A program made the translations under genes and the position numbers. The notes below the pieces were generated by a model, which searched no databases, was not told the origin of the DNA, and saw only the letters and a program-made list of their open reading frames with translations. From Candidatus Acidiferrum sp. (GTDB lineage: Bacteria; Verrucomicrobiota; Verrucomicrobiia; Limisphaerales; UBA8199), in NCBI GenBank assembly GCA_035541055.1, contig DATKNZ010000220.1:3992-67991 (forward strand): a stretch of 64,000 bases of DNA, in the 5' to 3' direction. Positions 5,876 through 40,426 of this stretch are shown one piece after another. Each line of letters starts with the position of its first letter. Positions within the stretch are counted from its first letter, which is position 1.

Positions 5876-6430
5876 ATGGCGAACATTCCGCCGCAGCGAA
5901 CAGGGGCGGCCATCGCTCACCTTCCCGTTATGAGCCGTAAGGGCCGATCAATTTTGGTTCTCGTCTGCGCGGCCGTCGTCTGCGTGGTGCTGGCGTGGTG
6001 GTTGGCCGTTCGGCACCTGGAAGACCTAAACGCTGCTCAGCACCTCGCCATGGAAGGGCATCCAACAGTGGAGCAGATGCTCCATTTGCTGCAATATTCC
6101 GACACAATAGTTCTAAATAATACGCTGACCCAATTTGAGCGTTCACGGAATCCAGCCGGAAAGGAACGCGCGGCAGAGTTACTTCGTCACCCTGATCGTT
6201 ATGTTTCATACAGCGCATGCCTTTACCTGGGCGCAATTGGCGATGAGCGGAGCATCCCTTATTTGATAAAAGGACTAGACCACCCGGCGTGGCGGTCCCG
6301 ACCGCGAGTGGTGAAGTACTTGAAGAGCTTAACGGGCCAAGATTTCGGTGAGGATAAGGAGGCGTGGATTCGGTGGTGGAACAGCCAGAATCCTGGGTCC
6401 GGATTTGATTTTGCTAACAAGCAGGCATAA
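5876..6430 (+). CDS. Membrane-anchored HEAT/PBS-lyase-like repeat protein
   Basis: N-terminal TM (ILVLVCAAVVCVVLAWWLAV). HEAT-like segments (SACLYLGAIGDERSIPYLIKGLDHPAWRSRPRVVKYL). Confidence 0.5.
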   Translation: MANIPPQRTGAAIAHLPVMSRKGRSILVLVCAAVVCVVLAWWLAVRHLEDLNAAQHLAMEGHPTVEQMLHLLQYSDTIVLNNTLTQFERSRNPAGKERAAELLRHPDRYVSYSACLYLGAIGDERSIPYLIKGLDHPAWRSRPRVVKYLKSLTGQDFGEDKEAWIRWWNSQNPGSGFDFANKQA

Positions 6431-10356: not shown

Positions 10357-10675
10357 GAGCGTGGAGCGTGGAGCCCCTTTCACAGAAGGAAACGAAGTAA
10401 ACGAAGAGGCAAAGCGTGAAGACGCCAAACGCAACGACGCCGGCGGTGGCCTGGAGCTGCCGCCGGCTTGCCAATTCTCTACAGAAGGAAACGAAGGGAA
10501 CGAAGGGAAGAGAGGGGGAAACATCCAACATCCAACATCCAACATCCAACATCCAACATCCAAGGAGAGAAACAGGGCTCGCGGGGATGAAGACCAGTTC
10601 TGGCGGCATAGCCAATAGCCAATCGCCGATAGCCGAGCCAGAGAACTCAGGGCTCGCGGGGACGCTTGCCCTCCC
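10357..10675 (+). repeat. Composite repeat cassette C4
   Basis: GAGCGTG x2.5 (10357-10374), CACAGAAGGAAACGAAGTAAACGAAG (10381-10406), GC hairpin GCCGGCGG..CCGCCGGC (about 10438-10466), ACAGAAGGAAACGAAGGGAACGAAGGGAAG (10481-10510), AACATCC x6 (10520-10561), truncated GGGCTCGCGGGG + GGATGAAGACCAGTTC (10575-10600), ATAGCCR x4 (10608-10634), GGGCTCGCGGGGACGCTTGCCCTCCC (10650-10675). Confidence 0.95.
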
Positions 10676-10699
10676 GGGGGAGGAAGAGAGACCTAACTG

Positions 10700-18324: not shown

Positions 18325-18939
18325 ATGAAAAGCAAAGTCCCTGTTCCTGCCCCCGCGCCGGGCGTAACGGCTCAGCACAAGGCGCGGAGCGCCGAAGAAA
18401 AGCTGCTGGCGCAAGAGTTGGAGGCGGACCTGGCGGGCAAGAAGAGCAGGGCTCGCGGGGACGCTCGCCCTCCCAGGGCGATGCCGGAGCCGGTAGCCAT
18501 TACGTCGCTGTCCCAACTGGAAACGCTGTCGAACGGGGCGCCGGTGATTGTGGACGTGAAGCTGGCCGGGCAGTTCGTGCGGTTCACGGGGCGACGACTC
18601 AAGCCGGTGGAAGCCAAGGAGATCAAGCTGCTGCTGGACGCGTCGATGCCGCCAATGCTGCCGCCGGAGAAAGAGGGAATGCCAATGCGCTACGATTACC
18701 GGGACCCGGGCTACCTCCGCAAGGTGGAGGAGAACCGGCGCAAGGCCCGGGCGCTGGCGCTGCACACGGCCTACCCGATTTTCCGCGAGGCAATGGCGTC
18801 CGAAGACGGCCCGGTGGACGAGAACCGGATCGTGCAGTTTGTCGAGGGGCGCAATGTGGATGACGACGTGCTCGAAGTGCTGTTTAAGAAGGTGATCGAG
18901 CCGGTTGTGGAGGTGCAGGCGCTGGCCAGTTTTATCTAA
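18325..18939 (+). CDS. Tail assembly chaperone candidate (G-like)
   Basis: Directly upstream of the tape measure. First ATG at 18325. Carries the 26-nt GGGCTCGCGGGGACGCTCGCCCTCCC element in-frame (18449-18474, SRARGDARPPRA). Confidence 0.5.
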   Translation: MKSKVPVPAPAPGVTAQHKARSAEEKLLAQELEADLAGKKSRARGDARPPRAMPEPVAITSLSQLETLSNGAPVIVDVKLAGQFVRFTGRRLKPVEAKEIKLLLDASMPPMLPPEKEGMPMRYDYRDPGYLRKVEENRRKARALALHTAYPIFREAMASEDGPVDENRIVQFVEGRNVDDDVLEVLFKKVIEPVVEVQALASFI

Positions 18940-19244
18940 GGCAGCAGCTTCCCGACCGGCTCCAGAACTATGAGTTCAAGAAGCTGCTGCCGCCCGACAA
19001 GATCCTGCCTGCTCCCGATGAAGGGTATTTCGAGATGGAAACAGCCAAGGCGTTCCATTACCGGTGGCGCGATTGGCTGGAGGAAAGCCCCGTGCTGCGA
19101 GCACAGATGATCGCCCACGAAGCGGTGAAAGGCATGCGCGACACGTACAACCTCGAACAGCGGGAAGCGATGCTGACCAAAGGGGAGGACCGCGCCAAGA
19201 CGCCGGCGCCGTGGGAGACGATTCGGGAGAAGTTTTTCAGGTAG
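18888..19244 (+). CDS. -1 frame extension of the chaperone (GT-like frameshift product, putative)
   Basis: The -1 frame is open from 18888 to 19244 and overlaps the 0-frame end. A T-TTT-A run sits at 18930-18934, 3 nt before the 0-frame stop. Location matches the conserved G/GT arrangement of tailed phages. Confidence 0.45.
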   Translation, partial: EGDRAGCGGAGAGQFYLRQQLPDRLQNYEFKKLLPPDKILPAPDEGYFEMETAKAFHYRWRDWLEESPVLRAQMIAHEAVKGMRDTYNLEQREAMLTKGEDRAKTPAPWETIREKFFR

Positions 19245-19281: not shown

Positions 19282-22200
19282 ATGAGCGAGAGCGGCAGCC
19301 CGATTTTGACCGAGAGCATCAAGCTGGACATTCAGACGCCGAAGCAGACGGGTCTGGAAAAGCTGCTGGAGCAGCTCGACCAGGTGGCGATTGCGGCCCG
19401 GCAGGCGAACAAGGCGCTGGCGGGAATGGAGCAGCAGGGCCAGCCGAAGTTCGCCTCGATCAAGGGGCTGACGAAAGACATTCAGGAGTTGCAGAAGGGC
19501 ATCGGAGGCAGGGCGCTCTCGCTGTCGCTGCCGGACTTGTCGAAGGCTTACGGGCTGCACCTGAAGGCGTTCAAGGATTTCCTGGCGGAGCGGGATGACC
19601 TGTTCAATAAGAGCACGTTTCGCAAGGGGGCCTTCAGCGGAGCGCCCTCGGCGGCGGCGGCGATCTTCGCTTTTGACAACCAGAGCATCGCCCGGCGCAA
19701 GAAGCTGCTGGCGGACGCGCTGACGCCCACGGTCAGCTCCGTGCAGGGGATCAAGCTGGGCAAGACGGGCAAGGTAGCGCTGGACGTGGCGGGGGCGCAG
19801 GTGGAGGCGAGGCTGGTGGGGAAGGTGCAACTGGCGGTGCCGGCGGAACAGGTGGTGACGGCGCCGGCGGCGGGCCGAACGGACGCTCGCCCATCGCCGA
19901 GAGCCAAGCCCGCGGCCCGAATAGCCGATAGCCAATCGCCGATAGCCAAAGTCCCGGGGGCGGGCGTGCAGGCGTCTGTAGAGGGACCAATCAAGCTGGT
20001 CATACCGGCAGCGCAAATACAGGCGAGCGTGGAGGGGATGATTACGGCGGCGGCGGCGACGGCCAGCGGCGGGGTGGTGCGCGATGCCAAGACGGGGAAG
20101 TTTGTGAGTACCGGGGGCGGAGCGGGCACGAGTACAAGCACGAGGACGAGGACGAGCACAGGGACGAGCAAGGCGCTGGGAGGGTTGAATGTCGGGCCGC
20201 AGGCGGGGGAGTTTGAGCGGCGGCGGATTGAGGACGCCAGGACGGGGCGCGTGCGCGAGACGGTGGCGCGGCGGGACGCGTCGGGGGCCATCGTGGAGGA
20301 GACCTGGGACAATGCTTACGACGCCTTCAAGGTGGCGCGGACGACGAGCCGGTCGGTGACCGGGATTTCGCCGCTGCAACAGTTCCGCACGATTCGCACG
20401 CTGAACGAGGAGGTTTACCGGCAGATGGTGGGGGCGCTGCCGGCGCATGACAAGGTGGGGCGGGGCTTCGGCACGTCGCTGGCGATGACGCAGCAGGCCA
20501 ATGCGCTGGAGGGAATCTTTACGGCGCATCCCGAGCTGGCCGCCGCCCTCGGTCCGCAGCAGGCGGGGAAACTGCAAGCGATCCTGAGCGCGCAGGCAGC
20601 CACGCTGCGCGCACGGGCGGGCGCGGTGAGCGAGGACGCGACGCAAGCCTACGTGAAGATGCTGGACCAGGCGGAGGAGCGGCGGTCCAAGCGGTCGGTG
20701 AGCACGCAGGAAAAGGCGCTGCGGATGTCCGGCGGGCAGGCCGGGCACGCTATGCACATGGCGGAGGGGGAAGCGAAGATCTACGAGCTGCAGACGCCGG
20801 ACGTTTACCGTTCCGGGGCGACCAAGGCTCACTACTTCGGCCTGAAGGCGCAGGGGGCCGACCAGGCGGCGGCGATTATCCAGTCGGCGCTGGCGGCGAA
20901 TCCGCGGGCCAGTGCCGACCTGCGGCGGGAGATGACCGAGAAGATGGAGGAGCACCTGCTCAACGCGAGGATCTTCCGGGCGGCGGGCGGCGTTGCCCCG
21001 GGAGCGCGGCCGGCCACGGGCGAATACGGGCGGTTCCTGGCGGGGCTGAAGGCGTTCACGCCGATGGGGATGCTGGCCAATACGACGAAGGTCACGGGGT
21101 GGGCGGCGGCGGTGACCGTGCTCTACAAGAGCGTGGAGCTGGCGCGGTATTCGCTGGGGCGGTTCATCGAGGTGGGCGAGGAGACGGCCAGGCTGGACGT
21201 GGTGTTCCGAAAGGTGGGCGGGAGCACGCAGGAGTTGACGGGCGACATTTTGAAGCTGGCTTCGGCCAATGCCCGGGATGCGGCCCAGGCGATGGACAGC
21301 GCGACGGAATGGTCGCGGCTGGGGCTGACACGCAGGCAGGTGGGCGAGGCGACCAAGGCAAGCCTGACGGCGGCCAACGTGGCCCACATGAAGCCCGAGG
21401 AGACGACCAAGCAGCTCTCGACACTCATGCACGTGTTCGAGTTGGACGCGACCGAACTCAACGGGGTGATGGGGATGCTGACGGCGACGAGCCAGCGATA
21501 CAATGTGACGCTCGAGGATTTGTTCAGCGGGCTGGACCGGAGCGCGGCGACGGCCAAGGCGGCCAAGGTGAGCCTGGGCGAGCTGCAAGCCTTGATCGCG
21601 GTGATGGTGGGCCGCACGGGGCAGACGGGCATCATCGTGGGCAACACGCTGAAGAACATCTTCACGCAGTTCAGCAACCCGACGATGCAGCGATACCTGC
21701 GGGTGCGCGGCATCGAGACGATGGCGACCGAAGGGGAGAACATGGGGCAGCTCAAGTCGGGCAGCCAAATCCTGCGAGATGTGTTCGTGCGGTACTCGGG
21801 GATGAAGCCGGCTGAGCAGGCGGACTTGTCCCGCAACCTGGCGGGGCGGTTGCAGGTGGGCCGGTTCCAAAGCCTGATGGAAGGCTACGCCGACGCGCAA
21901 AAGCTGGCGGTGGATTCGCAGCTCAAGCTGAACGCGGCACAGGAAGCCAATACCCGCATACTGGGGACGCTCAAGGCGCAACTGACGGCGCTGCGGGTGG
22001 AATGGGACCGGATGATGATGACGGCCGGGCAGTCGTGGGGGCCGTGGGCGGCAGAGCAGGTGCGCTATGGCAAGAACATCCTGCGGTCGATCAACGCGGG
22101 TGGGGAGGTGGAATCCCCCCGCACTATATACCTGCGGAAACAAGGCCTCGTTCCGTCGTCGGAGCAAGAGGCCGCCGAGCGAGCCGCGGCGCGGCGCTGG

Positions 22201-23973
22201 CTGGAGGGGCAGATCAAAGCCACGGGCCGCGTACCGGGCTTCTGGCAGACGTTCGCGACTGTAGCGCGGACCAACAGCGGCATGAGGGTTTGGGACTCCG
22301 AACGGCTGAAGCTGCTCTACGAGACACCTTACGAGCGGGGCACGGAGGAGTTCCAGAACAAGGTGCAGGAGCTGCACGGGCAGGCAGAGTCGGCCGCGCT
22401 CAAGGCACGGTTGTTCGAGACGGTGGGCACGGCGCTGCCCGGGGCGATGCGGACCAATCCCGAGATGGCGCGCTCGATGGCCCGGGCGGCCGGGTCGGAG
22501 ATGAGCGCGGCGGACGCCCAGCGCCTAAATGAAATGATGACGGCGGGAAACACGGGCGGCGTGCGGGACCTGCTCAACGTGCAGACGTCTGCGGCGAAGC
22601 GGCAATCGGCGGAAGCGGCGGCGGCGGAATTGGCCGAGCGCGACCGGCGGGCGGCCGAGGCGAAGGCGCAACTCGCCAAATACGACGCGGACATCCAGAA
22701 GGCGCAAGGGCCGAACGCGACGGAGAGGGAAAAGGCCGGGCTGGGGCAGCTCATCCAGGCCCGCGAGGAATTGACGCGATCCATGGACGCCAACACGGAA
22801 GCGCGGACGCGGGCGCTGGCGGCCATCGAGGAGGAGCTGGGCAAGACGGAGCAGGCGCTCTGGATCAAGCAGCAATACGTGGACCTGCTCAAACAGCAGG
22901 AGATGCTGATGCAGAACGTGGGGCAGCTCAGCGAGCAAGGAACGCCCGAGTCGATGGGGTCGCGGCTGGATGCGCGGGTGGGGTCGCTGCGGGATGAAGT
23001 GGCGCTATTGGAAGCCCAGCGGGACCGGCTGGAGCAGCACGCCAAAGAGCTGGGCACGCCCGAGGCCGAGCAGGCCAAGGACGCCGTGCAGAAAATGCTG
23101 ACCGAAAAGCAGGGAGAATTGGCGGCGCAGAATTCGCCGCAGTTGCGGCAGCTCGCGGCGATTTACGATGCGCGGACGATTGCGGCGCATCGGGCGCAAA
23201 CGGACGTGGCGGGGTGGGCGGTGGGGCCGACGGAGTCGCACCGGCTGTTCGCACAGGAGGCCCGCATACGGGAAGAACTGGCGGCTGCCCGGGCGCGGCA
23301 GGCCACGGGCGGGCTGAGCGATGCCGAGGCGACCCGGGCCAAGCAGCTCGAAGTGGACCTGACGCGGACGCAGGAGCAGATCCAGACGCGCATTGTGGAC
23401 CTGGCGCGGCAGGAACGGCAGATCCGCATGGACTCGCTGCGGGAGTTCAACAAGGGAATCCTGCTGGCCGGCCCGGGGGAGATGCTCCAGCGGCTGCAAG
23501 TGAGCCAGATGCTCCACCGGCAGGTGACGCCGGGCGAGTTCTTCGCCATGTCGCCCGAGGTGCGCCGGATGTATTTCGAGGCGCGGGGCGGCGACGCGGG
23601 CATGACGAACCGCTGGGAGCAACGCGAGATGGCCCGGACGGGGCATCGGCGCTGGAGCGAGCCGATGGACGAGGCCGTCCACGCGGTGGCCCGCGAACAG
23701 GTGGACCGCTGGGGGGCGGTGCAACGGCGGAACACGCTGGGCAGCCTGACGACGCTGCCCGACATGCCGCTGCCCTCGCTCAAGGAGGCGCGGCAACTGG
23801 CCGACAGCCTGACGCTGATGAACGGCGGGGTGCTGACGGTGACCCAGGCGCTGGCCAATCTCTCCCGCGTGGTGGACGCGCTGAACCATCGGTTTGGAGG
23901 GGGCGAGCCGCGGGCGCAAGGGCGGCGGTTTGATGTGAGCGCGGGGTTTGCGCCGGGGGCGCCGGGGTTCTGA
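19282..23973 (+). CDS. Tail tape measure protein
   Basis: 1563 aa, Ala/Gln/Glu/Arg-rich and helical. Tape-measure core-like segment (LGLTRRQVGEATKASLTAANVAHM...GRTGQTGIIVGNTLKNIFTQF). Follows the chaperone pair. Confidence 0.85.
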   Translation: MSESGSPILTESIKLDIQTPKQTGLEKLLEQLDQVAIAARQANKALAGMEQQGQPKFASIKGLTKDIQELQKGIGGRALSLSLPDLSKAYGLHLKAFKDFLAERDDLFNKSTFRKGAFSGAPSAAAAIFAFDNQSIARRKKLLADALTPTVSSVQGIKLGKTGKVALDVAGAQVEARLVGKVQLAVPAEQVVTAPAAGRTDARPSPRAKPAARIADSQSPIAKVPGAGVQASVEGPIKLVIPAAQIQASVEGMITAAAATASGGVVRDAKTGKFVSTGGGAGTSTSTRTRTSTGTSKALGGLNVGPQAGEFERRRIEDARTGRVRETVARRDASGAIVEETWDNAYDAFKVARTTSRSVTGISPLQQFRTIRTLNEEVYRQMVGALPAHDKVGRGFGTSLAMTQQANALEGIFTAHPELAAALGPQQAGKLQAILSAQAATLRARAGAVSEDATQAYVKMLDQAEERRSKRSVSTQEKALRMSGGQAGHAMHMAEGEAKIYELQTPDVYRSGATKAHYFGLKAQGADQAAAIIQSALAANPRASADLRREMTEKMEEHLLNARIFRAAGGVAPGARPATGEYGRFLAGLKAFTPMGMLANTTKVTGWAAAVTVLYKSVELARYSLGRFIEVGEETARLDVVFRKVGGSTQELTGDILKLASANARDAAQAMDSATEWSRLGLTRRQVGEATKASLTAANVAHMKPEETTKQLSTLMHVFELDATELNGVMGMLTATSQRYNVTLEDLFSGLDRSAATAKAAKVSLGELQALIAVMVGRTGQTGIIVGNTLKNIFTQFSNPTMQRYLRVRGIETMATEGENMGQLKSGSQILRDVFVRYSGMKPAEQADLSRNLAGRLQVGRFQSLMEGYADAQKLAVDSQLKLNAAQEANTRILGTLKAQLTALRVEWDRMMMTAGQSWGPWAAEQVRYGKNILRSINAGGEVESPRTIYLRKQGLVPSSEQEAAERAAARRWLEGQIKATGRVPGFWQTFATVARTNSGMRVWDSERLKLLYETPYERGTEEFQNKVQELHGQAESAALKARLFETVGTALPGAMRTNPEMARSMARAAGSEMSAADAQRLNEMMTAGNTGGVRDLLNVQTSAAKRQSAEAAAAELAERDRRAAEAKAQLAKYDADIQKAQGPNATEREKAGLGQLIQAREELTRSMDANTEARTRALAAIEEELGKTEQALWIKQQYVDLLKQQEMLMQNVGQLSEQGTPESMGSRLDARVGSLRDEVALLEAQRDRLEQHAKELGTPEAEQAKDAVQKMLTEKQGELAAQNSPQLRQLAAIYDARTIAAHRAQTDVAGWAVGPTESHRLFAQEARIREELAAARARQATGGLSDAEATRAKQLEVDLTRTQEQIQTRIVDLARQERQIRMDSLREFNKGILLAGPGEMLQRLQVSQMLHRQVTPGEFFAMSPEVRRMYFEARGGDAGMTNRWEQREMARTGHRRWSEPMDEAVHAVAREQVDRWGAVQRRNTLGSLTTLPDMPLPSLKEARQLADSLTLMNGGVLTVTQALANLSRVVDALNHRFGGGEPRAQGRRFDVSAGFAPGAPGF
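19881..19981 (+). repeat. Cassette-like block embedded in-frame in the tape measure ORF (with palindrome P6 at 19966-19981)
   Basis: GGACGCTCGCCC (19881-19892), ATAGCCR/ATCGCC x4 (19921-19947), GTGCAGGCGTCTGTAG. Translated as TDARPSPRAKPAARIADSQSPIAKVPGAGVQASVE. Confidence 0.9.
22579..22594. repeat. Palindrome copy P7 (GTGCAGACGTCTGCGG) inside tape measure
   Basis: Read as V-Q-T-S-A. Confidence 0.85.
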
Positions 23974-24347: not shown

Positions 24348-24470
24348 CACAGAAGGGAACGAAGACTGATAAAGAGAAGTCAGGGTTGGCGGGGACGCTC
24401 GCCCTCCCGGGAGAGAAGGAAACGAAGGCAATAGCCAATAGCCGAGAGCCAATAGCCGAGAGCCGGTAGC
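24348..24470 (+). repeat. Composite repeat cassette C13
   Basis: CACAGAAGGGAACGAAG (24348-24364), GGGTTGGCGGGGACGCTCGCCCTCCC (24383-24408), GAGAAGGAAACGAAGG (24412-24427), aatagcc aatagcc gagagcc aatagcc gagagcc ggtagc (24430-24470). Confidence 0.95.
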
Positions 24471-27347: not shown

Positions 27348-27412
27348 GATAGCCAATAGCCAATTGCCGATAGCCAACAGGAGATGGGGCTCGCGGGGAC
27401 GCTCGCCCTCCC
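27348..27412 (+). repeat. Cassette C14a
   Basis: gatagcc aatagcc aattgcc gatagcc (27348-27375), then GGGCTCGCGGGGACGCTCGCCCTCCC (27387-27412). Confidence 0.95.
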
Positions 27413-27512: not shown

Positions 27513-27815
27513 ATGATGAAAGCTCTCCCCGAACTGAAGGCCCGTGCAGACGCCTGCAGGCCGGCGGTGAATAGCCAATCGCCGATAGCCCATAGCCGAA
27601 CGAATCCGCGGGATTTTGTTTTTCTGGATGCGCGGAGCCGGCTCTACCGGGTGCGGGAGGTGGAGGGAGCTTCCTGGCTTTACTACTGGCAAGGGGGCGG
27701 GTGGGTGAGCTTGCGGAAGCTGATGCCCGAGACGGCTCGCGGATACGCACTGCTGGCGCTACCCGCAGACGAGGCGGGGCGCTACGCCGGCGGGGTGCCT
27801 TTTCTTCCCGAATGA
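27513..27815 (+). CDS. Hypothetical protein (100 aa from first ATG); start uncertain
   Basis: ATGATG at 27513. The N-terminal 30 codons read through palindrome P9 and an ATAGCC array (ADACRPAVNSQSPIAHS). Confidence 0.35.
   Translation: MMKALPELKARADACRPAVNSQSPIAHSRTNPRDFVFLDARSRLYRVREVEGASWLYYWQGGGWVSLRKLMPETARGYALLALPADEAGRYAGGVPFLPE
27544..27597 (+). repeat. Cassette C14b: palindrome P9 (27544-27559) + ATAGCC-type x4 (27570-27597)
   Basis: GTGCAGACGCCTGCAG, then aatagcc aatcgcc gatagcc catagcc. Confidence 0.9.
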
Positions 27816-33088: not shown

Positions 33089-33292
33089 CTAATTGTCCGA
33101 CCAGTCACCGCCAAGCCGGCTGTGCCAATCGGCGGGCGGGGCCGGGCGAGTCACACGCGAGACATTGGGGGTGAAACCGGGGACGGCCGGGGGCGGCTGC
33201 GGGACGTAGGCGAGGCGGCGCTGGAACTGCCGGTAGGCGGCGAGCCGGGCCAGGTACTGGGCGTGCCAATAGGGGAGGGGGATGTTGCTCAT
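33089..33292 (-). CDS. Small hypothetical protein coupled to the helicase stop
   Basis: ATG at 33292 overlaps the helicase TGA (ATGA). MSNIPLPYWHAQYLARL... Confidence 0.4.
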   Translation of the reverse strand: MSNIPLPYWHAQYLARLAAYRQFQRRLAYVPQPPPAVPGFTPNVSRVTRPAPPADWHSRLGGDWSDN

Positions 33293-35925
33293 AGGCTGGA
33301 CCATACATCGGAGTTGGTGACGGTGGCGAAGCGGGCGCGGGCGCGCAGCTTCCAGAGGGGCGGGGCGGGGTCGGGCGGATCGGGTGGGGGTGCAGGCGTC
33401 TGCAGGGCTTCGACGGTGAAGGCGGCCAGGGGGTCGTGGCGGTCGGGCGCGGATGAGATAGCCGATCGCCGATAGCCTATAGCCGAGGGAAGGGCAGAAC
33501 CGCGCAGGTTGGAGGGGAGCATGGCGGGCGGGCGGATGGTGATGAACTCGGGGGCCAGCCGGACGGGCCGGGCGACGGCGGCGGGCAGGTCAATCCACTG
33601 GCGCCAAGCGTGATGCAGGCGCTGGCGCAGGGCGGGCCATTGGGACCGGAGCGCGTCCTCATCAATGGTGGCCTCCCGGGCGTTGAACTCGCGGCGGGCG
33701 ACGTGGAGCAACTCGGCGAGGTTGACTTCCTCGGTGCGCTCGCCGATGAGGCGGCCATCCAGCACGAGCTCGGAGGCGTCGGCTTTCTCCTGCACGAGCG
33801 ACTCCAGGCGCAGGTCGATGGTGCCGGGACAGACGACGACATAGACGTTGACGGGCTTGACCGAGTTCATGCGGTGGACGCGGTCGAGGGCCTGCTTGAA
33901 CTTGTCATAGGCCCAGGAGTAGGCCATCAGGATGACATTATTGGCAAGGTGGAAGCTGTGGCCTTCGGCCATGCACTCGACGCCGGCCAGCATGACGGGG
34001 ATGGAGGCGTCATTGCGGCGGCCCTGCTTGAAGATGGCGGCCTGGTCGCCGCGGGACTTCTGGCTGACGCGGCCATCGAGCAGGACGTGGCGGACGTCGG
34101 CCTCGGAGAGCCAATGGGAGAAGTTGTCCAGCGGGTCGTTGAAGGCGCTGAACACGACGGCCTGCTCGCGGCGCTCAAGGATTTCGGCGATGAGGGTGAG
34201 GACGGTGGCGGCCTTGGGGACGTAGGGGTTGGTGGAGCGAGGCGGCAGCGGGACGGAGCCGCGGCCGCGGCAGACAGGGCAGGGGGAGGGGTTGAGGGTT
34301 GAGGGTTGAGAGTTGAGGGAACGGCAGGGGCACGTCTCCTCGGGTTCGCCGGGTTGGGGTTTCAAGTGGTCGCTGGAGGGGTCGGCGGCGGCGATGCGCA
34401 GGGCCTGCAACTGAGCGCCCACGGCGAGCTTGCCATTGACGTCGCGGTATTCGGCATCGAGGTGGTACTGGTAGACCTTCTTTTGGAGGGTGCCCATCTG
34501 GCAGCGGATGACCTTGCGGACTTTGGGGACAATGTCCTCGCCGGCGTCCTGCTTGCGGCGGCGGAGAATGATGGGGCCGAAGAGTTTCCAGAGGCGGTGG
34601 ACGTTGCAGACTTCGGCGGTGTATTTCCTGAAGCGGCTGCCGGTGGCCTTTTTGCCGTCGGCTTTGGCCTGCTCCTCCTTGCTGAGGTTGCGCTCGGTGA
34701 CCATGAAGGTGGAGGCGAAGCGCTCGCGCTCGGAGCTTTCATCGCGGTAAGGGAAGATGGGGGTGGCTTCGGCCTTGCCGCCGACGGCCCACCAGGCCAG
34801 CCGGAAGGCATCGGGCAGGCGATTTTTGACCGGGGTGGCGGTGAGCACCAGGCGGAAGCGCGGGTTGAGCGAACGGACGCCGCGCCCGACGATGGTGGTC
34901 TCGCCCTTCATCTTTACGCCCTCGTCCACAACGACGCAGTCGAAGGCGCTCCAGCAGAGATCGGCCAGGGACGGGGAATAGAGGCACTTCACATACCGCT
35001 TGGGGCGGGTGTCGGTCTCGGGTTTGGCGGGGTCGTAGCCCGGGGGCGGCTCGCCGATGGGGTAGGCTTTGAGCTCGCCCATGCCGGCGCTGTACTCGAG
35101 GATTTTGTCGGCGCAGAAGGCCCGCACGATCCAATCCTGCTGGCGACGGGAGAGGTCGGCGAAGCGGGTGTCCGGTGTGCGGCCGCAGAGGTTGACGAGG
35201 ACGGCGTGCGCGGCCAAGAGACGCTTGCGCTGGGCGGCGGCGGCTTTTTCGTCCCAGTGCCGCAGGGAATCGAGCCGCTGCTGGAGTGTGGCATCCAGCT
35301 CCTGGATGGTAGTGCGCGGCGAAGCGTGGAGGGCGTCAAATTCATCGGCCCACCTGACGGCGCGCCAGGCGAAGAAGGTGCAGACGTCTGCACACGGGGG
35401 CATCGGCGTGCCGCTGGGTTCGACGGGTGCGCGGTGGACGCCGATGGGCATGGCCAGCCAATCGAGCAGCGCGCATGGTTCCCAGTCCTCGGGGTCGGGC
35501 ACCGGGGCGACGCCATTGGTGGTGAGCTGGGTGTAACTGGTGATGTAGAAGCCAGGTGGGACGATGGGGCGGCCGGTCTCGTCGGTGTGGGTGAGGCGGG
35601 AGCCGGGCAGGCGGGTGAGCTGCTCGAAGGTCTGCTGGCTATCGAGCGGCTGGACGACGACGCCGAAGTGGGTGAAGGCCTCCTCGCGGATTTGCTGGTG
35701 GAGGTCGCCGGGGGCCACGATGAGCACGGGGAGGCGGGGGCGGAGGCGGGCGGAGGGTTGAGGATTGAGGGTTGAGGGTTGAGGGGGGCGGTCGAAGCCC
35801 ACCTTGAGCAGGGGCCATACGAACATGGCCCAGGTTTTTCCCAGGCCGGTGTCCCAGCCGAGGATGAGGCCGTCCTTGAGGGCGGCACGGGCGAGGTCTT
35901 GTCGTTGGAACGTTTTGAGTTTCAT
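33289..35925 (-). CDS. SNF2-family helicase
   Basis: DTGLGKT (motif I), VVVDEGVKMK (II), LVLTATPVKN (III), C-terminal helicase domain (VVFSAFNDPLD, VMLAGVECMAEGHSF, ALDRVHRMNS). Contains three in-frame repeat blocks. Confidence 0.85.
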   Translation of the reverse strand: MKLKTFQRQDLARAALKDGLILGWDTGLGKTWAMFVWPLLKVGFDRPPQPSTLNPQPSARLRPRLPVLIVAPGDLHQQIREEAFTHFGVVVQPLDSQQTFEQLTRLPGSRLTHTDETGRPIVPPGFYITSYTQLTTNGVAPVPDPEDWEPCALLDWLAMPIGVHRAPVEPSGTPMPPCADVCTFFAWRAVRWADEFDALHASPRTTIQELDATLQQRLDSLRHWDEKAAAAQRKRLLAAHAVLVNLCGRTPDTRFADLSRRQQDWIVRAFCADKILEYSAGMGELKAYPIGEPPPGYDPAKPETDTRPKRYVKCLYSPSLADLCWSAFDCVVVDEGVKMKGETTIVGRGVRSLNPRFRLVLTATPVKNRLPDAFRLAWWAVGGKAEATPIFPYRDESSERERFASTFMVTERNLSKEEQAKADGKKATGSRFRKYTAEVCNVHRLWKLFGPIILRRRKQDAGEDIVPKVRKVIRCQMGTLQKKVYQYHLDAEYRDVNGKLAVGAQLQALRIAAADPSSDHLKPQPGEPEETCPCRSLNSQPSTLNPSPCPVCRGRGSVPLPPRSTNPYVPKAATVLTLIAEILERREQAVVFSAFNDPLDNFSHWLSEADVRHVLLDGRVSQKSRGDQAAIFKQGRRNDASIPVMLAGVECMAEGHSFHLANNVILMAYSWAYDKFKQALDRVHRMNSVKPVNVYVVVCPGTIDLRLESLVQEKADASELVLDGRLIGERTEEVNLAELLHVARREFNAREATIDEDALRSQWPALRQRLHHAWRQWIDLPAAVARPVRLAPEFITIRPPAMLPSNLRGSALPSAIGYRRSAISSAPDRHDPLAAFTVEALQTPAPPPDPPDPAPPLWKLRARARFATVTNSDVWSSL
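33390..33484 (+). repeat. Palindrome P12 (33390-33405) and ATAGCC-type x4 array (33458-33484) inside the helicase 3' tail
   Basis: GTGCAGGCGTCTGCAG, then atagcc gatcgcc gatagcc tatagcc on the + strand. Read on the - strand as ALQTPAP and SAIGYRRSAIS. Confidence 0.9.
34291..34318 (+). repeat. GTTGAGG x4 array inside the helicase ORF
   Basis: gttgagg gttgagg gttgaga gttgagg. Read on the - strand as SLNSQPSTLNPSP, between CPC and CPVC. Confidence 0.9.
35378..35393. repeat. Palindrome copy P13, perfect GTGCAGACGTCTGCAC, inside the helicase
   Basis: Read as C-A-D-V-C-T. This is the only coding copy in a different frame. Confidence 0.9.
35757..35784 (+). repeat. GTTGAGG x4 array inside the helicase ORF (N-terminal region)
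   Basis: gttgagg attgagg gttgagg gttgagg. Read on the - strand as PQPSTLNPQPS. Confidence 0.9.
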
Positions 35926-38643: not shown

Positions 38644-38925
38644 ATGTTTGAGTTGAGCCCGGCTCCGGCCGATACGGGAAGCCCGGGGATGCCAGCCACG
38701 GATCTGGCGGGCGGGATGCTTTTGACGAAGTGGATGCGCCAAGTGGGGCTGTCCCGTCCCACGGTATGGCGCTACCGAAAGGCGGGGCGGATCAAGACGA
38801 TCTCGCGTTACGGTCGCATCTACATTACGGCTGAGGCGGCGCGGGAGTTTTTTCAGCCGGACGATCATCCGGTTTCCCGGCCTCCCGGGCGACCTTCTGC
38901 TGCACGAGGGCGAGCAGTTCGCTGA
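38644..38925 (+). CDS. Excisionase/AlpA-like HTH DNA-binding protein
   Basis: LLTKWMRQVGLSRPTVWRYRKAGRIKTISRYGRIYI helix-turn-helix pattern. Adjacent and convergent to the integrase. Start among several Met codons is uncertain. Confidence 0.55.
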   Translation: MFELSPAPADTGSPGMPATDLAGGMLLTKWMRQVGLSRPTVWRYRKAGRIKTISRYGRIYITAEAAREFFQPDDHPVSRPPGRPSAARGRAVR

Positions 38926-40162
38926 CGCTCAATTGTTCGGCCGTCTTGTTTTGGCTGGCCGGTATCGGCGTGGCGGGTGGGGCCTCGGTGGGGCGGGCAC
39001 CGAAGCTGAATTGGGCGGCCATCTTCTTGGCGTGCCCCGGGGCCAGGTGGCCATACACTTTGCCAATCAGCACCCCACCGTCAGCATGTCCTACCCAGCG
39101 GGCAATTGTCATATAATCAATGCCCTCCATGACGGCGTAGCTGATGAAGTGATGGCGGCAATCGTGCGGCGAGAACCGGGGGAACCCCACTTTCTGGCGT
39201 ACCACATGAAGGGTGTTTTGCAGCCCAAGGACGTGCCCGTCCTTGGCGATGCCTCGCGGCGAAGGGAAGATCCATTCCGCATCTGGCAGACGCCGTGAAG
39301 CCATGTCCAACAGGTGCGCTTCGAGCCGGGGGTTGAAGTCCACGATCACATGCTTCTTGTATTTGGTGTCGAGGTGAAGCTGCTTGTTCTTCCAGTCCAC
39401 GTGCGCCCACTTGGCCTTGACCGCCGCGCCTTTGCGCGCACCGGAGAAGCACATGAATTTGAGCCAGTCCACGCAGAGTTGGCCCGTCGAGTAAACCGGC
39501 GTGTCGTTTTCCCGGCGCAGCAACTCGGCGTAGACCCGCTCGAAGTCCTCAGTGGAGACTAGGCTGCGAACCTGCGGCTTGTAGGGCAGCGCCTCATAGT
39601 TCTTGGTCACCGGGTCGCCAATAATCCAGCCGTCCTTCTTCTGCGCATGGGTCAGCATGTTGTGCAGGCTCATCACGTCGAGGTTAACGGTGCGGGTGCT
39701 GATGGGCTTGTCGCCGCGCTTTTCGGCCTTGCGAGCTTTGACGAAGTCGGTAATCTGCTTCACCGTAATGTGATTGATGCGCGTATGCCCGATGGCCTTC
39801 ACCCAGCGTTCAAGGTTGCGCTCCTCGTTCTTAATGGTCTTGGGGTCCTTGGCCTCGGTGTCACGGCACCATTGGATATAATCCGTGGCGTAGTCGCGCA
39901 CGCGGGGAGCCTGGCCTGCGGCGGGCAGGACGCCCTCGCGTTTATCCTGGCGCATCTGGACGGCGGCGTCTGCAGCCTGCTTGGCGTCGCGTATGGGTTG
40001 GTTCTGTTTGTCCAGCAGGCAGATGCGCCGCACGCCCTTGAGGGGAAGGCGCAGGGCGACGTAATAGCGGCCGTTGCGAACGTAGAGGCCCTCGATCTCG
40101 CGCCCGCGAGAGTCTTTGACTACGGTGAATTTCCAGCGATTATTGGTGTTGTCGGTTTTCAC
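38825..40162 (-). CDS. Tyrosine recombinase / phage integrase
   Basis: C-terminal catalytic pattern (ARKGAAVKAKWAHVDW, HDCRHHFISYAV, GHADGGVLIGKVYGHL). GTG start at 40162 was chosen because the longer track ORF (to 40348) runs antisense through the tRNA gene. Confidence 0.85.
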   Translation of the reverse strand: MKTDNTNNRWKFTVVKDSRGREIEGLYVRNGRYYVALRLPLKGVRRICLLDKQNQPIRDAKQAADAAVQMRQDKREGVLPAAGQAPRVRDYATDYIQWCRDTEAKDPKTIKNEERNLERWVKAIGHTRINHITVKQITDFVKARKAEKRGDKPISTRTVNLDVMSLHNMLTHAQKKDGWIIGDPVTKNYEALPYKPQVRSLVSTEDFERVYAELLRRENDTPVYSTGQLCVDWLKFMCFSGARKGAAVKAKWAHVDWKNKQLHLDTKYKKHVIVDFNPRLEAHLLDMASRRLPDAEWIFPSPRGIAKDGHVLGLQNTLHVVRQKVGFPRFSPHDCRHHFISYAVMEGIDYMTIARWVGHADGGVLIGKVYGHLAPGHAKKMAAQFSFGARPTEAPPATPIPASQNKTAEQLSVSELLALVQQKVAREAGKPDDRPAEKTPAPPQP

Positions 40163-40168
40163 AGCGTT

Positions 40169-40200
40169 TGTGCAACGGATGTTGCACAGAATGTTGCACA
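40169..40200. promoter_or_regulatory. Triple TGTTGCACA-type site between integrase start and tRNA
   Basis: TGTGCAAC-ggat-GTTGCACA (perfect 8-bp inverted repeat, 40169-40188) plus a third direct copy TGTTGCACA (40192-40200). Starts 7 nt upstream of the int GTG. Confidence 0.5.
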
Positions 40201-40233
40201 ATGTAAATTGAGAACTGAACAAAACCCTTGGTG

Positions 40234-40320
40234 GCCGATGTGGCGGAACTGGCAGACGCGCTAGACTCAAAATCTGGTATCCGTAAGGATGTGTGGGTTC
40301 GACCCCCTCCATCGGCACCA
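40234..40320 (+). tRNA. tRNA-Leu (anticodon CAA), type II with long variable arm, CCA encoded
   Basis: Acceptor GCCGATG/CATCGGC, D arm GCG-GAACTGGCAGA-CGC, anticodon stem CTAGA/TCTGG with loop CTCAAAA, variable arm ATCC-gta-AGGAT, T loop GGTTCGACC. My hand fold leaves one T:T mismatch in the T stem. Confidence 0.85.
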
Positions 40321-40426
40321 TCCAAGATCCAGCCACGAACGATAGCAATGGCTGCCACCGGTTCGCCGCGGGGCGAGCCGCTTGGGAGGCCGAGCGTCGT
40401 CCTGGGCCCTGACTTTCCCGTCTTCT

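Follow-up and report, generated by a model that had tools for sequence, protein, structure and literature searches.

Heptamer repeat modules in a prophage tape-measure and helicase gene were probably copied into variable protein linkers

Modules in prophage coding sequence resemble intergenic repeats

The window analysed here is a stretch of 64,000 nucleotides from a genome assembly of Candidatus Acidiferrum sp. that includes a prophage. Segments within its tail tape-measure gene and its SNF2 helicase gene are specific to the lineage, occupy variable regions of low confidence and have the codon usage of non-coding DNA, and these embedded segments resemble intergenic modules of the same genome in both unit number and flanks. 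From these sequence comparisons we consider it likely, with a probability of roughly 0.7, that modules already formed elsewhere were copied into protein linkers able to tolerate them, with stop codons acting as a filter. ATAGCCR arrays gave 54 matches against 0.86 expected, on the + strand in every case. Two other assemblies match the region base for base with 100% identity, which rules out an assembly artefact.

The tape-measure gene contains a repeat-derived linker

The features of the tape-measure gene are:

19282..23973, + strand: tail tape-measure gene, 1563 aa, a single uninterrupted ORF
19855..19950, + strand: lineage-specific repeat-derived linker VTAPAAGRTDARPSPRAKPAARIADSQSPIAK, residues 192-223 of the tape measure
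19881..19892, + strand: core GGACGCTCGCCC of a degenerate copy of the 26-nt element, a 12-mer that was counted across the genome
19893..19948, + strand: period-7 tract of eight units, the final four (19921-19947) being canonical ATAGCCR/ATCGCCR
19963..19981, + strand: palindrome-like site GTGCAGGCGTCTGTAGAGG encoding VQASVEG, ancestral and not inserted

The ORF matches PF10145 at residues 657-855 (83.6 bits, cut-off 33.2) as well as tape-measure families of PHROG, and a chaperone gene with its overlapping downstream frame lies upstream. Full-length homologues align starting at residue 1. The original prediction placed a block at 19881-19981 inside this ORF, and this is correct: GC3, which is high, and codon log-odds identify one coding frame both 5' and 3' of the block, within the 1563-aa ORF. 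A split gene with the block as spacer is ruled out: the coding frame is the same to either side of the block, and 12 full-length homologues extend across it.

The linker block itself is missing in 12 homologues and interrupts a canonical tape-measure motif (IPAAQV|QASVxG). Its composition is that of non-coding DNA, with a codon log-odds of -0.31 and a GC3 of 0.69 for positions 19855-19950, against +0.50 and 0.88 for the entire gene. The tape-measure linker of a related phage (L001) has a codon log-odds of +0.82, and comparison of the two linkers at the DNA level detected no homology (local score 17, shuffle mean 15.6). Two of the homologous proteins are 1549 aa (P0003) and 1534 aa (P0002) long; additional homologues came from a search of representative proteins, and a search for further relatives in IMG/VR and JGI metagenome contigs found none. 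The insert of about 32-38 aa amounts to about 2% of the 1563 aa and sits in a hypervariable N-terminal linker. By the rule derived from lambda gpH, each residue inserted in frame into a tape measure should add about 1.5 angstrom to the length of the tail. The same expectation, here a prediction from the sequence alone, applies to the prophage: the insert might lengthen the tail slightly.

Over 32 nt, the tract has the same sequence as an intergenic array at a distance of 20 kb (C220:3914-3945), and the order of the block, an element relic followed by an array, also has intergenic examples. Resemblance ends at the array: its flanks match the flanks of no other array, and when a longer donor or common flanks were sought around the ATAGCC arrays, none was found for the tape-measure copy outside the array. 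No target-site duplication was found either. When folded as RNA, the block does worse than its shuffled versions (z = +1.54).

The four units at 19921-19947, the in-frame TCG codon at 19936-19938 and the translation given for the block were all verified. The ATCGCC variant had been pointed out as the one unit whose TAG would fall in the tape-measure frame. It is not an adaptation to the ORF: ATAGCC-R-ATCGCC-R-ATAGCC is common as a ready-made variant and occurs 32 times in the genome.

The palindrome next to the array is ancestral

The block had been described as indistinguishable from an intergenic cassette. The element relic and the four-unit array do resemble intergenic modules; the description fails for the palindrome, which was counted as a member of the inserted mobile cassette and instead is ancestral coding sequence in related tape measures. 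In addition, the array precedes the palindrome in the tape-measure gene, while the order in intergenic modules is the opposite. VQASVEG is a motif common to the whole tape-measure family, and the tape-measure genes of six related phages share the palindrome DNA down to its rare codons TCT and GTA; family-wide conservation of the peptide together with two retained rare codons clearly points to an ancestral site constrained at the DNA level. This palindrome is probably a more interesting lead than the heptamer modules.

Three arrays lie in loops of an SNF2 helicase

The minus-strand features are:

33289..35925, - strand: SNF2-family helicase gene, 878 aa (PF00176, PF00271)
33385..33405, - strand: helicase-tail copy of the prophage palindrome, encoding LQTPAPP and missing from the paralogue
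33457..33501, - strand: 15-aa insertion GSALPSAIGYRRSAI, four antisense-read ATAGCC units plus flanking module pieces
34282..34323, - strand: RSLNSQPSTLNPSP between CPC and CPVC, about four TCAACCC units
35749..35787, - strand: PPQPSTLNPQPSA, loop after the Walker A motif, about four TCAACCC units

The helicase arrays were claimed at three sites, the second exactly between CPC and CPVC, and all were found there (33457-33486, 34289-34319 and 35753-35785). A scan of genome contigs yielded just a distant Terracidiphilus helicase. A paralogue with 69% identity is encoded on contig C484. It lacks all three arrays, at the DNA level too, and so do eight other homologues; no proto-repeat was found in the paralogue at any of the array sites. 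The polarity of the helicase insertions is read from this one close paralogue and from distant homologues, and they appear to be gains on that basis.

Across 10 homologues, the three sites are indel-prone loops, and the codon log-odds of the arrays range from -0.21 to -0.72. An AlphaFold2 model, built on a 10-sequence alignment and of moderate quality (mean pLDDT 65.7, pTM 0.42), predicts coil at all three sites with pLDDT values of 28-54. The lowest values in both measures belong to GSALPSAIGYRRSAI in the helicase tail (codon log-odds -0.72, pLDDT about 28), which also includes the adjoining module pieces GGATGAG and AGGGAAG. RSLNSQPSTLNPSP stands in place of SNAGAVHIGL of the paralogue, with a net gain of 4 aa and a pLDDT below 50. 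PPQPSTLNPQPSA substitutes for an unrelated paralogue loop of equal length, at a position that is variable among the 10 homologues and where pLDDT falls to 54. At the latter two sites there is replacement with little net change in length, and simple insertion does not account for it.

Taken over both genes, alignment to homologues confirmed that the blocks are lineage-specific: they are absent from the 12 tape-measure homologues, from the helicase paralogue and from the eight other helicase homologues.

The chaperone gene and a small ORF are less certain hosts

Two further sites of the + strand had been named as hosts:

18447..18478, + strand: full copy of the 26-nt element near the chaperone start, inside the ORF or upstream of it depending on the start codon
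27543..27597, + strand: palindrome and four-unit ATAGCC array, 5' part of a doubtful ORF (27513..27815), judged by codon log-odds

The full element copy at 18447-18478 is present as predicted, and whether the chaperone gene carries it hinges on the choice of start: with ATG 18325 it lies within the ORF, with ATG 18481 upstream. There is coding signal (+0.3 to +0.9) at 18361-18430, upstream of the element, and it is plausible that the element is embedded in chaperone coding sequence. The chaperone N-terminus is variable among homologues; in a second phage, L002, it contains a CGAACAT array when compared with L001.

The small ORF 27513..27815, in contrast to the prediction, is not a convincing coding host of its array. 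Below about 27600, and hence over the palindrome and the array, its codon log-odds are negative, and they turn positive only at 27606-27750; gene callers disagree and propose three different starts. Homologues of this ORF were looked for and none was found.

The genome has a large population of period-7 arrays

The host genome contains 1,206 merged period-7 arrays, nearly all of them intergenic; in the tandem-repeat (TRF) output, period 7 has 1,248 rows, period 6 has 267 and period 8 has 176. Genes with PSCyt, PSD1 and DUF1501 domains among the neighbours agree with a verrucomicrobial affiliation of this genome. The 118 ATAGCC-family arrays are spread over about 62 contigs. Sizes are quantised: 87 of these 118 arrays have four units, 145 of 174 AACATCC arrays have five, and the embedded arrays likewise have four. 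Some arrays have a 21-nt super-period (7 codons). About 52 of the 1,176 arrays tested (4%) lie in open frames with coding flanks. The GGACGCTCGCCC 12-mer has 93 genomic copies where about 5 would be expected, and 88 of the 93 belong to the full 26-nt element GGGCTCGCGRGGACGCTCGCCCTCCC.

The arrays are direct repeats, neither palindromic nor hairpin-forming, and the 26-nt element folds no better as RNA than its shuffles. An Rfam search matched only a tRNA (40234-40317) and none of the modules. Five genes for Y1 (RAYT-like) transposases matched in the genome, and no link between these and the arrays was seen. Among 201 genomes of the order, 14 contain ATAGCCR triplets, and these belong to different families; none was found in four genomes of the same family.

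Stop codons can explain the uniform orientation

All modules in the prophage have the same genomic orientation, as the original prediction had stated, and no special mechanism is required for this. GGGTTGA contains TGA and ATAGCC contains TAG, and a minus-strand gene stays open only in the orientation observed; stop codons are therefore sufficient. Every embedded GGGTTGA-family array is read as TCAACCC, and these arrays and the ATAGCC array of the helicase are all in the stop-free orientation. The arrays of the tape measure and of contig C384 have the stop-prone orientation with an in-frame TCG unit. All three sense-embedded ATAGCC arrays contain the same 20-mer in the same frame, which is translated to SQSPIA. 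The proposal that the modules spread at the DNA level and are tolerated where frame and stop content allow fits these data, as it fits the non-coding codon composition and the intergenic-like unit number and flanks.

How the modules may have entered coding sequence

We suggest that pieces of ready-made modules were copied into the coding DNA of the tRNA-integrated prophage, likely by ectopic template switching or by a repair process similar to gene conversion. The landing sites would have been linkers that were already variable and unstructured, namely the N-terminal linker of the tape measure and three loops of the SNF2 helicase, with the N-terminal extension of the tail chaperone as a probable further site. 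Copies would persist only where the frame stays open: the minus-strand helicase would have retained the stop-free antisense orientation, and the plus-strand tape measure the common ATCGCC variant in the sole open frame. The predicted translation products are linkers of low complexity with a high content of P, S, T, Q, A and R, and they are probably near-neutral, with little or no functional effect.

Alternatively, slipped-strand expansion could have built the arrays on the spot, from proto-repeats present by chance in linkers that were already variable and with no copying from elsewhere. Over-representation of heptamer simple sequence repeats is known in many bacteria (PMC4692102, PMC4679880), the host loops are indel-prone and no extended donor was found. 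We consider this origin unlikely: copy numbers are quantised at four or five and not spread out, and the same few heptamer words turn up about 1,200 times; the embedded copies carry the 26-nt element and adjoining parts of other modules, and the paralogue has no proto-repeat at any of the sites.

Equally doubtful is the idea that the modules form a new class of mobile element, very small in size and able to create protein linkers. Fixed units of four or five repeats (about 28-35 nt) would then be moved by an unrecognised copy-and-paste process, entering prophages and occasionally ORFs, and the patchy distribution among genomes would reflect horizontal carriage, possibly via phages such as this one.

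There is a still smaller chance that the embedded modules are functional plus-strand cis-elements, such as binding sites or RNA signals, retained within genes on that account and with incidental translation. The clear DNA-level constraint on the adjoining palindrome-like site would agree with this, as would the single orientation of all prophage modules and the quantised array sizes, which suggest a size requirement; however, the related phage L001 shares these genes but lacks arrays, the homologous positions are array-free in all relatives, neither RNA structure (z = +1.5 for the tape-measure block) nor Rfam matches were found, and stop codons account for the shared orientation.

Contingency loci, in which gain or loss of one unit would shift the frame and switch the tape measure or helicase on or off while three units would tune length, are very improbable despite a unit length that is not a multiple of three, the position of the tracts inside ORFs of a temperate phage and the 21-nt super-period of some arrays. 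Each tract has just four units, and these are imperfect: the seventh base alternates and an ATCGCC variant occurs. Array sizes are quantised throughout the genome, and switching off either protein would be lethal to the phage. Three assemblies, among them one from another run, agree completely and without any indel over 20.2 kb and 3.6 kb, even if assemblers drop minor variants.

Comparison with known systems

In-frame insertion of repeat DNA into proteins is of a kind that is already known, with Rickettsia palindromic elements, intragenic REPs and TAACTGA heptamers as the nearest analogues. Rickettsia palindromic elements (RPE) are said, in work of Ogata et al. from 2000, to be inserted in frame in protein genes, and Di Nocera et al. 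in 2013 reportedly described such in-frame insertions for intragenic REPs and MITEs. Shared with RPE and intragenic REPs are the dispersed, mainly intergenic family with some in-frame, lineage-specific copies in ORFs, the surface or disordered placement, which is putative here, and the translation as extra peptide, which is a prediction here. The modules described here differ in being direct tandem heptamers instead of hairpin-forming palindromes, and their hosts are structural and replication genes of a prophage.

A prophage example is neuO, the O-acetyltransferase gene of the E. coli K1 prophage CUS-3, which contains a heptanucleotide VNTR (AAGACTC). Like the arrays of this study, it is a translated heptanucleotide tandem repeat within a prophage ORF (with translation predicted in our case), but neuO tracts are long, perfect and hypervariable and act as an on/off switch of translation, whereas the tracts here have four imperfect units that are identical between assemblies.

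Similar repeats are the TAACTGA heptamer direct repeats of Beggiatoaceae and cyanobacteria (PMC4679880) and the GGGAATC repeats of Xanthomonas and Nostoc (PMC4692102). These, too, are mainly intergenic heptamers, often directly upstream of start codons, that occur in sets of few units with a preference for four and have a patchy phylogenetic distribution; their forward orientation is stop-rich and the minority in ORFs is mostly in the stop-free orientation (PMC4679880, PMC4692102). In contrast, the units here are others, many families coexist (ATAGCCR, AACATCC, TCAACCC and others), the repeats occur in a prophage, and one embedded array, that of the tape measure, has the stop-prone orientation and stays open thanks to an ATCGCC unit.

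The analysis separates two things that the original prediction had merged: the heptamer modules, which are mobile, and a prophage-specific palindrome, which is conserved and retained at the DNA level within coding sequence. For annotation, it cautions against taking such blocks for gene boundaries or for errors of assembly. The modules indicate that the simple-repeat vocabulary of a host can enter essential structural and replication genes of a phage and, as predicted here, be translated, which would be one concrete route from non-coding DNA to protein linker sequence.

A heptamer-bearing block in the tape-measure gene

The window is C220:3992-67991. The genome (6.8 Mb, 534 contigs, 63.6% G+C) carries a prophage that extends from before the start of the window to about 40.3 kb, where its right end is marked by an integrase and a tRNA; beyond lie host genes of DUF1501/PSCyt/PSD1 type. 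ATAGCCR arrays account for 54 matches versus 0.86 expected, all 54 on the plus strand, and the intergenic spacers of the prophage hold many other 7- and 9-nt arrays (Tandem Repeats Finder).

Features at the tape-measure gene and the prophage right end
19282..23973, plus strand: tape-measure ORF (PF10145 at residues 657-855; matches to PHROG tape-measure families)
19881-19892: core 12-mer GGACGCTCGCCC of a dispersed element, in the tape-measure block
38825..40348, minus strand: tyrosine integrase
40234-40317: tRNA

The original prediction placed a cassette-like block at 19881-19981 inside the tape-measure ORF, and the stated coordinates, translation and TCG codon in frame were confirmed. Because an ENA contig of 87.7 kb and a Logan contig from a different run are 100% identical to the window (across 20,249 and 3,560 nt, respectively), an assembly artefact was ruled out as the source of the block. 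GC3 in the tape-measure frame is 0.87-1.0 upstream of the block, 0.63-0.70 within it and 0.8-0.97 downstream, and codon log-odds follow the same course.

The alignment starts at residue 1 for both full-length homologues, P0002 (1534 aa) and P0003 (1549 aa), and a library-wide search added ten further N-terminal homologues, most of whose alignments break at query residues ~196-232. Across the 13 aligned sequences the family motif has the canonical form G-x-[IV]-x-L-x-IPAAQVQASVxG; in the window protein a unique insert of 38 columns interrupts it, giving VPAEQV, VTAPAAGRTDARPSPRAKPAARIADSQSPIAK and then VPGAGVQASVEG. A linker occupies this position also in P0003, encoded at the related phage locus L001; the DNA of the two linkers is unrelated (local score 17 versus a shuffle mean of 15.6, equalled in 147 of 500 shuffles). 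The L001 linker resembles ordinary coding sequence (log-odds +0.82, GC3 0.86), and the window linker at 19855-19950 has a log-odds of -0.31 and a GC3 of 0.69 (gene mean +0.50 and 0.88). On these comparisons, the block of the window is taken to be the derived state.

Downstream of GGACGCTCGCCC the block has eight period-7 units, the last four being ATAGCCG, ATAGCCA, ATCGCCG and ATAGCCA. Over a stretch of 32 nt the block matches an intergenic array of the same contig (C220:3914-3945) exactly, and the order of element, then array, is found intergenically too; judged by sequence, the content of the block is cassette-like. GGACGCTCGCCC occurs 93 times in the genome versus about 5 expected, 88 times within GGGCTCGCGRGGACGCTCGCCCTCCC, an element of about 26-30 nt with at least 88 dispersed copies in both orientations (in the window at 10649-10676, 18447-18478, 24385-24410 and 27385-27412). 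It is often preceded by AAGTYW and has neither a significant fold nor an Rfam match.

All three sense-embedded ATAGCC arrays (in the tape measure, on contig C384 and in a small ORF) carry the 20-mer ATAGCCAATCGCCGATAGCC in the frame giving SQSPIA. The genome has 32 copies of this variant, and 9% of units are ATCGCC. Since the variant is common in intergenic arrays, the tape-measure TCG unit is a ready-made variant that passes the stop-codon filter, not one repaired inside the ORF.

A conserved palindrome beside the insert

The palindrome had been counted as part of the insert, which did not hold: GTGCAGGCGTCTGTAGAGG encodes VQASVEG, the conserved half of the family motif, and the same DNA is present in five related phage loci (L001, L002, L024, L025 and L026). 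At this site Ser is TCT and Val is GTA in all six tape-measure genes, in which TCT makes up 2.9% of Ser codons and GTA 6.8% of Val codons (joint probability about 6e-17, assuming independent genes); among five of these genes, the codon is identical in only 18% of amino-acid-identical columns. The site is a variant of the 14-bp palindrome TGCAGACGTCTGCA, counted 14 times on C220, 16 times on C504, twice on C241 and about once each on 36 other contigs, and also found at homologous intragenic positions in L001.

Sites of TGCAGACGTCTGCA in the window
2258, 6556, 11295, 13493, 18193, 19969, 22582, 27547, 29713, 32683, 33393, 35381, 38379

TGCAGACGTCTGCA is confined to prophage DNA, with sites both inside and between genes, and is kept at homologous positions across L001, L002, L024 and L026. 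Conserved DNA with rare codons, homologous sites and prophage enrichment argue that the tape-measure palindrome is ancestral, under a DNA- or RNA-level constraint and separate from the heptamer modules; TGCAGACGTCTGCA probably serves as a dispersed stoperator- or KorB-like site that a regulator binds. To call the block indistinguishable from an intergenic cassette was thus an overstatement, because the palindrome precedes the arrays in intergenic cassettes and follows them in the tape measure.

Modules at the helicase, chaperone and small ORF

The helicase is an 878-aa SNF2 protein (PF00176 and PF00271). Its paralogue on contig C484 shares 69% identity with it and has none of the three helicase arrays at protein or DNA level.

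Helicase arrays and the paralogue
Residues 47-59: PPQPSTLNPQPSA; unrelated loop in the paralogue, length unchanged
Residues 535-548: RSLNSQPSTLNPSP, between CPC and CPVC; SNAGAVHIGL in the paralogue, +4 aa
Residues 809-823: GSALPSAIGYRRSAI; nothing in the paralogue, +15 aa

All three sites are indel-prone loops among ten homologues (same order and a Terracidiphilus MAG), and the AlphaFold2 model (mean pLDDT 65.7) has low-confidence coil there (54, below 50 and about 28). Codon log-odds of the segments are -0.44, -0.21 and -0.72 (gene +0.52). The 15-aa insert consists of four ATAGCC units flanked by the neighbouring-module pieces GGATGAG and AGGGAAG.

The chaperone was said to carry the 26-nt element. 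A full copy (18447-18478) does lie just upstream of the ATG at 18481, the conserved core beginning with ITSLSQLE; whether it is embedded depends on the start codon. Embedding is plausible because there is coding signal (+0.3 to +0.9) at 18361-18430, upstream of that ATG, because homologues have N-terminal extensions of different length and because L002, relative to L001, has a CGAACAT array at the equivalent place. These units lie inside the chaperone N-terminus (L002 5405-5449), and ATTGCCR units lie immediately upstream of the L002 tape-measure start (6248-6272); L001 is without heptamer arrays, thus arrays are gained and lost fast among sister phages. From the chaperone stop (18939) to the start of the tape measure, GC3 is high in another frame (18888-19244), which fits the usual frameshifted chaperone extension of G/GT type. 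In L026 (4894-9568) the tape-measure homologue is called as consecutive ORFs of 346, 454, 450 and 319 aa, and the gene may be broken or frameshifted.

An in-frame cassette in the small ORF 27513..27815 was not borne out: codon log-odds stay below zero over the palindrome and the array and rise above it only at 27606-27750, a search for homologues found none, and each of three gene callers placed the start differently.

Array size, orientation and origin

Tandem repeats of period 7 dominate the genome (1,248 rows, versus 267 for period 6 and 176 for period 8) and draw on a small vocabulary of units. Four units are present in 87 of 118 ATAGCC arrays, five in 145 of 174 AACATCC arrays, and mostly four in AAATCCG arrays. 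Such quantised sizes are unlike those of freely slipping microsatellites and argue for a size constraint or fixed-module copying; together with the composite flanks, they make it unlikely that the arrays grew in place through slippage. Conservation extends beyond many of the chromosomal ATAGCC arrays, in the order AGAGCC..., GGGA, the array and ATCCGGCC...GGGGCAGAGAAYC.

An open frame with coding flanks is found for about 52 of 1,176 testable arrays (4%), some of them themselves repeated elements. In several unrelated ORFs, on C17, C90, C357, C504 and, twice, C220, TCAACCC arrays are read in sense as QPSTLNPQPS-type linkers. On C220, every ATAGCC or GGGTTGA array has the same genomic orientation. 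Since GGGTTGA contains TGA and ATAGCC contains TAG, a minus-strand gene stays open only in the observed orientation; it follows that a stop filter would explain the uniformity, making an orientation-preserving mechanism unnecessary, yet possible.

We favour, at a probability of about 0.68, a reading in which ready-made module pieces would be copied into linkers that were variable beforehand; only open copies would pass the stop-codon filter, and these would be translated into near-neutral low-complexity linkers. That the arrays are functional cis-elements is improbable given their absence in relatives, and phase variation by the embedded tracts is more improbable still, with only four imperfect units and identical assemblies. 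The genome has Y1-transposase genes, and nothing connects these with the heptamer arrays.

Within the order, ATAGCCR arrays were found in 14 of 201 genomes, of different families (among them G097, G083, G054 and G111); four genomes from the family of the window had none. G097 also has the closest helicase homologues (50% identity), and this co-occurrence hints at phage-linked spread.

If the lambda gpH rule applies by analogy, the tape-measure insert would affect tail length. That repeats can insert in frame is established for Rickettsia RPEs and intragenic REPs. Where TAACTGA heptamers fall within ORFs, most have the stop-free orientation (PMC4679880), and heptamers are over-represented, with four units preferred (PMC4692102). 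Given these precedents, the present case is one more example of in-frame repeat insertion, here in the tape-measure and helicase genes of a prophage.
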